Shown here: positions 16,384-19,300 of the stretch, one piece after another
How the letters are laid out: each line of letters opens with the position of its first letter
Position numbering within the stretch: position 1 is the first letter of the stretch
DNA from: an uncultured Verrucomicrobiota bacterium
Lineage (GTDB): Bacteria > Verrucomicrobiota > Verrucomicrobiia > Limisphaerales > J093
Assembly (NCBI GenBank): GCA_964396005.1
Contig: CAYNCT010000001.1
Coordinates: 19,679 to 83,678 of the forward strand
Reading direction: 5' to 3'
Length of the DNA: 64,000 bases
Translations under genes and position numbers: made by a program
Notes under the pieces: generated by a model
What the model saw: the letters and a program-made list of their open reading frames with translations, nothing else
What the model was told of the DNA's origin: nothing
Databases searched by the model: none

Positions 16384-19300
16384 CTAACCGACTCCCCGGT
16401 CTTCCGCCGGACCGCCGGGCGCTGACGTCGCCGGATCGTAATTGAGCCACGGCCCCAGCCAGCGCTCGGTCTCGGCCACGGACTGGCCTTTGCGCGCGGC
16501 GTAGTCCTCGATTTGGTCGCGGCCCAGCTTGCCGACGGCGAAGTACTTCGCCTCGGGATGCGAAAAGTAGAAGCCGCAGACGCTGCTGCCGGGCCACATG
16601 GCGCAGCTTTCGGTCAGTTTCATGCCGGTGTGCCGCTCCACATCCAGCAACTGCCAGAGGGTGCGCTTTTCGGTGTGGTCCGGACAGGCGGGATAGCCGG
16701 GGGCGGGGCGGATGCCGCGATACTTTTCCTCGATGAGGTCGGCCGGGGTGAGGTTCTCCGCGCGACCATAGCCGAGTTCGGCGCGAACCTGCTGGTGCAA
16801 CCACTCGGCGAAGGCTTCGGCCAACCGGTCCGCCAGCGCCTCGGCCATGATGGCGTTGTAGTCGTCGTGCCCGGTCTTGAAACGTCGCACCAGTTCGTCA
16901 AGGCCGTGGCCGGTCGTGACGGCGAAGGCGCCCAGGTGGTCGAGGGGCGAGGGGCGAGGGGCGAGGGCAGGCCCTGAAGCATCGTCTTCTCGACACTCGG
17001 CGCTCGACGCTCGACCGGCCCTGGGCGCGATGAAGTCGGCGAGGCAGACGTTGGGCTTGCCGTCGTCCTTCACCATCTGCTGGCGGAGGAAGTGGAACCT
17101 GGCGAGCACCTCCGCGCGGTTCTCGTCGGTGTAAAGCTCGACATCGTCGCCGACACGGTTGGCTGGAAACACGCCATAGACGCCGCGCGGCGTAAGCAGC
17201 TTGCCGCTGACGATCTGGTCGAGGAGCCGCTGCGCGTCGGCGAAGAGTTTGCGGGCTTCTTCGCCGTGCTTCTCATGCTGGAGAATCGCGGGATAAACAC
17301 CGCGCAGTTCCCAGGTGTGGAAAAACGGCGACCAGTCAATGAAGGGGACTAGCTCTTCGAGGGATACGGCGGTGGGGTTTCCGCGAGGGCCGGCGCTGGC
17401 TCCGCGGTTGGCGTCTGTTTCTGTTGCCGCCAGCTCCGGAAGCCGGTCGCCGCTTCGTCGCACAACCGGCCCCAGTTTTGGTCCTTCCACACGCAAAACG
17501 CTTCCCATTCCGCCGGGTCTTCCAACTCCTTCGGAAGTGGCGTGCGATCGAGGCGCAGGCTCTCCTGATACATCCAGTCGTGCAGCCGCTCGTAGAGCTT
17601 CCGCTTTTCTTCGGACAAGGTCATAGACTTTCCTGGGTTGATCGTTCGCATCCTGCGCCGCTTTCCGCAGCAAACTAGCAAAAGCATTCCCGTGGGCCAA
17701 GCGGAGGTCTTCATAGATGCCGCGCCAGGGTAGCGCAAGGACGTCGCCGAGATGACGCGCCAGTTGGTGGGCCGTGGAAGCGAGGGCCGGTTTACCGCCC
17801 ATCGCCGCCCCCAGAACCACCGCGGCCTCGCTGACGATGCCTGCGGCAGTCAGGGCTTCCTGGACGGCATTCAAAGTTTCGCCACTGGTGAGAATGTCAT
17901 CCACCAGCACCACCCTGTGATTGGCCAACACCGTGGCAGCTTCGTGGGGAACCACGATCAAGGTCGGGGCCTCCATCTTGGCCACGTAGCCGCGCCGGTT
18001 CTTGGCCTCATCCAGGGAGCGGATGCCCAGCCCACCATAAATCAGGCCCCCAAAACGGGCCTGCAACCACTCGGCGAGGAGACGGGGCAGGGTGTTGCGG
18101 CCCGAGGTGGAGGGCGCCAGCACCCAGGCGACGCGTCCGCCCAGCACGGGCGTGTAAGCCTCCGGACGGCAATGCCGATCGAGGAAGGCGAAGGCGAGTT
18201 GCTGGTCGAACAACCGTTCTTTCAGCCAGCGCTTCTCAGCCACCATCCGGGGAGTGTCATCCGTAGTGAAGTAAGTCGGCAGGCATGCCAGTGCCAGAAG
18301 CTGTTTCAGTTCGGATTCGCACGTGAACTCGCGACCGCCAATCCGGCAGGGCAGGGTTGGGATGCGAGGGGTCTGGGCGCGCGGCACCTGGCAGACTGCG
18401 CTGGCCTGTGGCCCAAGCACACGCACCCCGGTGAACTCCGGCTCCGGCAAATCCTCGTAGCTCAGCTTCGGCGCATTGGCGCGAGCCTGTTCCAGCGTGA
18501 GCAGCCTCTGTTGCTGGCCGGTATGCTGGGCGCGCAGCTTCTCGTAATCGGCGCGAAGCTGCTGGACGAAGGTCGGTTTCTGGTCGCCACTGAGCAGCGC
18601 GCTCACCACCGGCACCGCCCGGCTGGCATCGAGCACATGCACCACGGGCTCGGAATAGCCGGGCGCAATTTTTACCGCCGTGTGCGCGCGGCTGGTGGTC
18701 GCGCCGCCGATGAGCAGGGGGAGCTTCATACCCTGTCGCTCCATCTCGCGCGCGACATGGACCATCTCGTCGAGCGACGGGGTGATCAGTCCGCTGAGAC
18801 CGATGATGTCCGCGTGGTGCTGGCGGGCCGCTTCGAGAATCCGGTCGCACGGGACCATCACGCCAAGGTCCACGACGCGGTAGTTGTTACACCCGAGGAC
18901 GACACCGACGATGTTCTTGCCGATGTCGTGGACGTCGCCCTTGACCGTGGCGAGGACTACGCAGCCGGCATTCTCGGAGTCGGCGTTGTCGGCGCCGGGG
19001 CCGCTCCCTCGCGCAGGGCCAGGGCTTCCTGTTCCTTGCGCTTGCGCTCCGCCCCCGCCTGCCGCAGCGCATTGAGCGTCGCTTCGTTCAGGATGCGCAC
19101 CTTTTCCAGGAACCGCTGCCGTTTGGAAGAATCGTTCGCGAACACTTCCCGCTGCGTAGTCGGGGTCGTCTCGGTTTTCATGGAGGTAAAGTTCAGCGGC
19201 GATCCGCCCGGTTTCAACAAGTTTTTCCTTCGAAGGATGCACCTGCTTCGCCAGCCAGTCCAAGTCCCGCTCCACCGGCCGGCTGAAGTCCGTATTGTCG

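Follow-up and report, generated by a model that had tools for sequence, protein, structure and literature searches.

Evidence for a conserved small gene nested in the +1 frame of a zeta-kinase insert within the methionine synthase genes of Verrucomicrobiota

Introduction

In Bacillus subtilis the small gene comS, which regulates competence, is nested out of frame within srfAB, a surfactin synthetase gene, and in the lysis cassette of phage lambda one of the two spanin genes, Rz and Rz1, lies wholly within the +1 frame of the other, their products being thought to act as partners. Here we describe a nested arrangement of this kind in a gene for cobalamin-dependent methionine synthase (MetH), found on a 64,000-nucleotide (nt) stretch of DNA from an uncultured Verrucomicrobiota bacterium (assembly GCA_964396005.1, contig CAYNCT010000001.1, positions 19,679 to 83,678; hereafter the window, in whose own numbering coordinates are given). 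The first of two in-frame inserts in this MetH, termed cassette 1, encodes a kinase domain of the zeta-toxin fold, and its 3' end is overlapped by a small open reading frame (ORF) in the +1 frame of the same strand. Comparison with related loci makes it very probable that this ORF is a real, conserved nested gene.

The long overlapping genes olg1 and olg2 of Pseudomonas aeruginosa are antisense and evolutionarily young (PMC8850804), while in synthetic entanglement relE has been written inside ilvA (PMC10359631) and the Riboverlap approach has been developed (PMC8528312). For the kinase, a precedent is the antitoxin of the gonococcal zeta_1 toxin, a non-globular helical polypeptide that lies over the potential ATP-binding site (PMC5923241).

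Results

A small ORF in the +1 frame at the end of cassette 1

The nested gene occupies 18957..19181 on the minus strand (as do all features of the window named below), running from an ATG at 19181..19179 to a TAG at 18959..18957, and would encode a protein of 74 residues in the +1 frame relative to MetH. Its host gene spans 16384..22362 as a 1992-codon ORF, assigned from its Pfam domains and from PDB alignment; it has all five Pfam domains of cobalamin-dependent methionine synthase, plus Zeta_toxin and Pribosyltran matches. Human MetH aligns to ORF residues 15-792, 1130-1313 and 1667-1976, and the gaps in this alignment therefore define two in-frame inserts in interdomain linkers of the enzyme. 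Cassette 1 (~337 codons, residues 793-1129, 18976..19986) interrupts the B12-binding module, in the linker that connects its cap with its Rossmann part, and within the cassette the zeta-toxin-fold P-loop kinase domain (19138..19920), recognised by Pfam, a structure model and the Walker motif, is read in the MetH frame. The start codon of the nested gene (19179..19181) spans the MetH-frame codons CAT-GAA (His-Glu). Its TAG falls within the MetH codons tgc-gTA-Gtc, 17 nt before the Lys of KGDVHDIG, and MetH homology resumes at residue 1130 (position 18975), placing the stop just inside the resumed part, as an earlier note made from the sequence of the window alone had described. The same note took the small ORF to be 18957-19220, which corresponds to the ORF listing (18957..19220, TTG start, 87 residues); the ORF is real, but it is the ATG at 19181 that is conserved as a start, and not the TTG at 19220.

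Measured in 120-nt windows, the G+C content at third codon positions (GC3) of the MetH frame is ~0.85-0.9 along the ORF and drops to 0.42-0.50 over ~19240..18940, where MetH position 1 climbs to as much as ~0.8. Within the small ORF the G+C values at codon positions 1, 2 and 3 come to 0.64/0.54/0.79 when read in the +1 frame, as compared with 0.79/0.64/0.54 for MetH. Scored by codon usage, the same bases have log-odds per codon of +0.11 (+1), -0.51 (MetH) and -1.11 (third frame); control genes of the window score 0.49 +/- 0.16 when read correctly and between about -0.9 and -1.1 when shifted. The +1 frame is the most coding-like of the three, yet it lies below a typical gene, and the MetH frame lies slightly above a typical wrong frame. 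The earlier note's view that the +1 frame is here more coding-like than the MetH frame is borne out by the GC3 switch and by codon usage, with the statistics run for all three frames, and the peptide strings that it quoted for both frames were correct on re-translation. Because the GC3-rich composition of this genome alone would leave a MetH frame open over such a +1 gene with P ~0.23-0.44, the window by itself could not settle dual coding; the comparative data do settle it.

Conservation of and selection on the +1 frame

A cassette search returned metagenomic MetH fragments with the same insert, and a scan of one genome per species yielded 80 loci (L006-L085), nearly all from Verrucomicrobiota metagenome-assembled genomes (MAGs), a few of these evidently mislabelled, and including the isolates Verrucomicrobium sp. 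BvORR034 (L038) and Haloferula sargassicola NBRC 104335 (L068). The analysis set, also of 80 loci, was composed of the 77 scan loci in which both anchors were present (the P-loop GGQGSGK and the B12 motif KGDVHDIGK), together with L002, L004 and the window, i.e. 79 related loci plus the window. A further 24 independent MetH-embedded metagenome loci formed a replication set.

Conservation of the small ORF in homologous cassettes had been named beforehand as a check, and the +1 ORF was found in 80/80 loci, with a length of 53-113 residues (median 64), a conserved core and a stop placed shortly upstream of, or just within, the resumed MetH sequence. In the replication set it matched the family hidden Markov model (HMM) at E<=2e-11 in 24/24 loci. 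The proposed comparison of synonymous and non-synonymous substitutions in both frames gave an equally clear outcome: across 34 phylogenetically independent pairs (Nei-Gojobori method, nucleotide pairwise alignments), the ratio of non-synonymous to synonymous substitution rates (dN/dS) was 0.30 for +1, as compared with 1.48 for MetH and 1.35 for the third frame, and the proportion of non-synonymous changes was below that of synonymous ones (pN<pS) in the +1 frame in 33/34 pairs. This pattern indicates that the predicted small protein is under purifying selection.

The overlap is divided into two parts. Over the first ~20 codons of the small gene (19122..19181), which cover the conserved C-terminal end of the zeta-like domain, both frames are constrained, with dN/dS of 0.50 (+1) and 0.65 (MetH). 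Over the remaining ~50-54 codons the values are 0.27 (+1) versus 1.93 (MetH), and here the MetH frame is, as judged from substitutions, selected only for openness, its amino-acid sequence being free. Taken over its whole length, the last ~225 nt of cassette 1 is by these comparisons under selection in two frames, across ~100 Verrucomicrobiota genomes and contigs. The predicted +1 product is small, at ~55-75 residues.

An open MetH frame, read through as a linker

The distance from the P-loop to the B12 motif is a multiple of 3 in every locus with both anchors, although that distance ranges from 636 to 888 nt and takes 23 distinct values. Not one of the 80 loci has a stop codon in the MetH frame, whereas the mean probability of its being open, P(open), is only 0.24-0.30 per genome, whether stops are counted in the corresponding shifted frame of these genes or the small ORF is recoded synonymously; the product of P(open) over 34 independent lineages is ~1e-23. 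In the replication set the MetH frame was open and in register in 23/24 loci, the exception being a short contig with a frameshift. Since the frame is free of stops in all analysed loci, ribosomes reading MetH must traverse the nested-gene stretch, and since it is also in register the B12-binding and activation domains stay in one polypeptide.

In the window this low-complexity stretch (18976..19119) connects the insert with the B12-binding domain and, in the +1 frame, the same bases make up the helical core and tail of the small gene. Beyond the first ~20 codons the pooled MetH-frame product is 67% Gly, Pro, Ser, Ala, Thr and Arg and 10% hydrophobic, a composition consistent with a flexible linker over the second part of the overlap. 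With the conservation of the +1 ORF, its purifying selection, its kept ATG and the open, in-register MetH frame, the earlier proposal of overprinted, dual-coding genes at the end of cassette 1 is supported. Its description as the classic overprinting pattern, a structured product in one frame and a disordered one in the other, needs two refinements: the dual constraint is limited to the first ~20 codons, further on the MetH frame is only kept open, and the polarity is probably reversed with respect to the usual case.

The start codon and its surroundings

In the 80-locus alignment the ATG stands at the same column in 72/80 loci, most of the others having a nearby ATG or GTG, and it spans MetH-frame codons of the form NAT-GAR. 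Where the MetH codon at the start site is NAY it is NAT in 72/73 loci, as compared with 23.1 expected from local codon usage (z=12.7), so that a position silent in MetH is preserved for what it does in the other frame. Compared with other windows of the gene, the 61-nt region around the ATG has a much weaker fold (mean z +2.33, in 99% of loci), and its GC content is 11 points below the rest of the gene in all 80 loci. Within the window, the GC content of 300-nt windows over the nested start (19150..19230) dips to 0.59, the lowest in the profiled 15-24 kb, and this dip matches the low-structure start region common to all the relatives. These features fit an internal initiation that would be independent of a Shine-Dalgarno (SD) sequence, without proving it. 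A terminator scan gave a single terminator-like match, no more than chance.

The kinase domain and the small protein

The insert domain matches Pfam Zeta_toxin partially (E 6.9e-7), and its AlphaFold model has a predicted local distance difference test (pLDDT) score of 91.9. The best PDB match of this model is Neisseria gonorrhoeae zeta_1 (6epg, template modelling (TM) score 0.80, E 1e-9), followed by zeta (3q8x), AvrRxo1-ORF1 (4z8q) and PezT (2p5t). Walker A, the DGT motif and the arginines are invariant in the embedded kinases and in their free-standing relatives. The 74-residue small protein is predicted in a single-chain model to form one long helix at residues 10-60, with pLDDT ~90 for residues 20-45. 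When its family profile was compared with 1.84 billion proteins, only 18 cluster representatives were matched, 17 of which are 50-147 residues long.

Free-standing kinases carry a comparable +1 ORF

Relatives of the kinase also occur outside MetH, as free-standing proteins of 257-292 residues. All free-standing loci examined (L005, L086-L093) have a +1 ORF of 66-99 residues whose ATG lies a few dozen codons before the kinase stop and whose end lies 25-30 codons past that stop in most loci and further in L005. These ORFs share the motif ...I(D/N)(F/V)SKA..ERA.FF.(D/Q)MA.ESLS.AARRRR..., and the C-terminal tails of their predicted products are very basic. Embedded and free-standing small ORFs agree in frame, start position and length. 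Several of the free-standing kinases (L086, L088, L089/L090) adjoin SIR2_2 and DUF87 genes, JetC/JetD genes or SMC/NOV_C genes, neighbourhoods that by their gene content look typical of defence or addiction modules and resemble defence islands; the small +1 ORFs of these loci are missed by gene finders.

A parallel case in cassette 2 and other inserts in MetH

Cassette 2 (residues 1314-1666, 17365..18423), between the B12-binding and activation domains of the same MetH, encodes a phosphoribosyltransferase-like domain (17625..18423) with a Pfam Pribosyltran match and weak PADLOC matches to the toxin components ShosT (E 1.9e-5) and PsyrT. A second nested +1 ORF of 91 residues (17349..17624) overlaps its 3' end, where the MetH-frame GC3 falls in the same manner as in cassette 1. 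This ORF is conserved in a Pedosphaera MAG (L016), with pN/pS of 0.39 in the +1 frame versus 1.15 in the MetH frame. Among the loci fetched the cassette 2 insert was present only in the window and in L016.

Two further loci, L051 (~4660..5610) and L080 (~1720..2670), have a different in-frame insert between the B12 anchor and IDWSPFF, in the same MetH linker as cassette 2, bearing an IS200/RAYT-like tyrosine-transposase motif ('MPNHVHV'); a direct repeat (translated, GGGIL.PSPDT...AGGQNAPATV) brackets the insert of L051. The MetH linkers of Verrucomicrobiota seem to accept several kinds of in-frame coding insert. We also considered and rejected the idea that cassette 1 is an intein or other self-removing insert: the junctions read MEAEK/VKARRV and ...SENAG/CVVLAT (the slash marking the boundary), relatives read ...EQAGRVILAT at the latter, and there is no His-Asn and no conserved nucleophile.

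Irregular loci

Three loci (L006, L009, L046) belong to MAGs titled Klebsiella, Spirochaetaceae and Enterobacteriaceae and carry the MetH insert, which is otherwise specific to Verrucomicrobiota; these three MAGs have probably been binned or labelled wrongly. In the metagenome contigs L001, L002 and L003 single-base indels split MetH into several gene calls, probably because these are error-prone long-read assemblies, and frames read there are unreliable. Two of them had suggested, through the entries P0001/P0002 (L001/L003), that the window might contain a compensated double frameshift. We rejected this reading, since both contigs are indel-ridden (MetH is broken into many gene calls, and a 1-nt deletion lies inside GGCCAC-GTCAAGGG), since the peptide lies in +1 in L013, which is closely related to L003 and comes from another assembly, and since both ends of the L001 small ORF are in the +1 frame.

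Discussion

Taken together, the comparative data shown here argue strongly for a same-strand gene nested at the end of cassette 1, and the question becomes what its product might do. The zeta_1-like fold of the kinase, combined with a small protein whose predicted helix resembles the helical antitoxin of zeta_1, leads us to propose tentatively that the small protein binds the kinase domain and restrains or regulates it, as epsilon-type antitoxins do with zeta toxins. This is the least certain part of our interpretation, and we would give it somewhat less than an even chance of being correct. Whatever the role, the ancestral module was probably free-standing and consisted of a zeta-like kinase gene whose 3' end was overlapped, in the +1 frame, by a small gene. 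This two-gene module would then have been captured in frame within the interdomain linker of MetH, with loss of the kinase stop codon, such that the MetH frame came to read over the whole small gene as a flexible linker. Synthesis of the small protein would start separately, at an internal site of the metH mRNA that lacks a Shine-Dalgarno sequence, and the single helix of the protein might bind the kinase domain in the style of an epsilon antitoxin. As the free-standing relatives already carry a +1 ORF over their 3' ends, the nested gene probably arrived together with such a two-gene, toxin-antitoxin-like module, and for the same reason the small ORF is probably the older reading, over which the MetH-frame linker was laid at the time of fusion, a polarity the reverse of that in usual overprinting.

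Several observations weigh against parts of this interpretation. We infer translation of the nested ORF from sequence comparison. A Shine-Dalgarno-like motif was found upstream of the ATG in only 6/80 loci, below a background of 20%, and a promoter scan found no promoter-like site for the nested gene. The small protein has no family match in Pfam, NCBIfam or PADLOC, and the order of the two genes, kinase followed by small gene, is the reverse of that in classical epsilon/zeta systems. As regards the origin of the module, comparison of embedded and free-standing small ORFs with hhalign gave a weak match in the expected register (E 0.03, probability 1.7%), and an HMM of the embedded small proteins had no matches among the ORFs of the free-standing loci; because sequence similarity is this weak, the case for a common origin rests mainly on position, frame and length. 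The loci are moreover related, for which the 34-pair design is a partial correction only, so that counts such as 80/80 overstate independence. Finally, the region-split dN/dS values used a codon alignment built from the +1 protein and therefore biased towards that frame, and nucleotide pairwise alignments agreed with them.

The alternative that survives best accepts the small protein as real and gives it a role unrelated to the kinase, whether by acting on MetH, on cobalamin handling or on transcription, or by persisting merely because it is locked in an essential gene. The missing family match leaves room for such a role, and the very basic tails of the free-standing versions would fit nucleic-acid binding as well. 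Nesting in an essential gene would also shield the sequence from deletion, as its synthetic analogues illustrate (PMC8528312, PMC10359631). Against this, the small ORF accompanies the kinase gene whether or not the latter is part of MetH, with frame and register unchanged, and this co-occurrence links it to the kinase rather than to MetH, while the purifying selection on the sequence of the small protein argues against passive retention. On balance we regard an unrelated role as rather less likely than not.

A second alternative would have the +1 segment enter the MetH/kinase polypeptide by programmed frameshifting or transcriptional slippage, either by a +1 shift after 'FFQ' with a return before the B12 domain or as a truncated MetH-kinase-helix product. 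It draws on the position of the frame change, which is at the same place in all lineages, after a conserved FFQT motif, and on the two assemblies (L001, L003) in which the helical segment is apparently in frame with MetH. These, however, are the indel-ridden contigs described above: in L001 only the middle of the small ORF is in frame 0, its N- and C-termini being in the +1 frame, and the better-assembled evidence of L013 again places the peptide in +1. Moreover, the ATG is kept against codon preference in an unstructured initiation region, the first 20 codons of the +1 frame, which precede the supposed shift site, are themselves constrained (dN/dS as given above), a slippery heptamer was found in only 3/80 loci and a homopolymer run of at least 6 in only 2/80, none of them conserved, and an open MetH frame would be needless if ribosomes left it. 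We therefore consider a shifted fusion product very improbable.

Equally hard to sustain is a constraint acting on DNA or RNA, such as a structured RNA or a binding site, or the persistence of a decaying gene relic in place of a translated protein. That the small protein belongs to no known family would suit either version. Yet the substitutions are codon-periodic in the +1 frame, with synonymous changes far above non-synonymous ones in 33/34 pairs, which is not expected of an RNA or DNA element; a relic would drift to a dN/dS of 1 and gain stops; Rfam has no matches over 16-23 kb; and structure in the start region falls below, not above, that of shuffled sequence. A chance open frame in GC-rich DNA, where the frame one base behind the coding frame is often open and long spurious ORFs are plentiful in the window, or a pair of compensating assembly errors, can be set aside because the two-frame arrangement recurs in ~100 independently assembled genomes and contigs at 42-76% protein identity.

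Returning to the proposal of a kinase partner, cassette 2 bears on how general such captures may be. Two different toxin-like inserts share one plan, a small nested gene beneath a linker that is read through, and their agreement makes an accident unlikely. It is conceivable, and in our judgement still doubtful, that two toxin-antitoxin-like modules were each captured in frame in MetH linkers, one a zeta-fold kinase with a helical partner and the other a ShosT-like phosphoribosyltransferase with a small partner, the partner genes surviving in the +1 frame under the read-through linker. Were this so, the locus would be a natural gene entanglement, in which a toxin-like domain is held in cis with MetH and its inhibitor is produced from the same mRNA by internal initiation. 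Neither part of a module could then be lost without breaking methionine synthesis, and the balance of toxin and inhibitor could couple MetH translation, or B12 and methionine status, to the kinase switch.

Well-supported same-strand nested genes are rare in bacteria and go unreported by gene callers; the present one has few profile matches among catalogued proteins although it occurs in ~100 Verrucomicrobiota genomes and contigs. A literature search found no description of the MetH insert or of a nested antitoxin-like gene. Being clean and deeply conserved, the locus can serve as a test bed for dual-coding detection methods and, if our reading of its history is correct, as a worked example of an overlap that arose by gene fusion and read-through of an existing gene, not by de novo birth. 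It also points to something that has gone unstudied in the MetH of an entire phylum, namely a kinase domain of the zeta-toxin fold set between the cap and the cobalamin-binding fold and maybe controlled by a nested protein.

How does this arrangement compare with known systems? As with comS in srfAB, a small gene is wholly contained in a large enzyme gene, sharing its strand and mRNA but using another frame. However, comS is unlinked to the neighbouring encoded domain, whereas the MetH-nested gene accompanies a kinase module that exists also outside its host, and over most of the MetH overlap the host frame appears to be a free linker and not functional enzyme sequence. The full +1 embedding is shared with Rz/Rz1, as is, putatively, the partnership of the products; the difference is that the outer frame here encodes a housekeeping enzyme into which a domain has been inserted, and the arrangement has been kept across a phylum of bacteria.

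With the epsilon/zeta family (streptococcal epsilon/zeta, PezAT, N. gonorrhoeae epsilon_1/zeta_1 (PMC5923241) and AvrRxo1-ORF1/ORF2) the locus shares the zeta-toxin kinase fold with an intact Walker A, and a small, predicted helical and non-globular protein encoded with the kinase, as epsilon_1 is with zeta_1. No similarity of the small protein to epsilon or PezA was detected in the Pfam, NCBIfam and PADLOC comparisons. The small gene, which is always found with the kinase, lies downstream and overlaps the kinase 3' end, whereas the classical antitoxin gene lies upstream; in addition the kinase is fused into MetH, and its toxin role is putative.

Like olg1/olg2, the nested gene is an alternative-frame ORF within an annotated gene with evidence of purifying selection, but it is on the same strand, short, and kept across lineages whose kinase domains are only 42-76% identical. 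It also resembles the engineered "entangled" genes, where a gene in an alternative frame of an essential gene ensures that mutations and deletions strike both. While relE/ilvA and Riboverlap were engineered, the MetH case appears to be their natural counterpart, stable over long evolutionary time.

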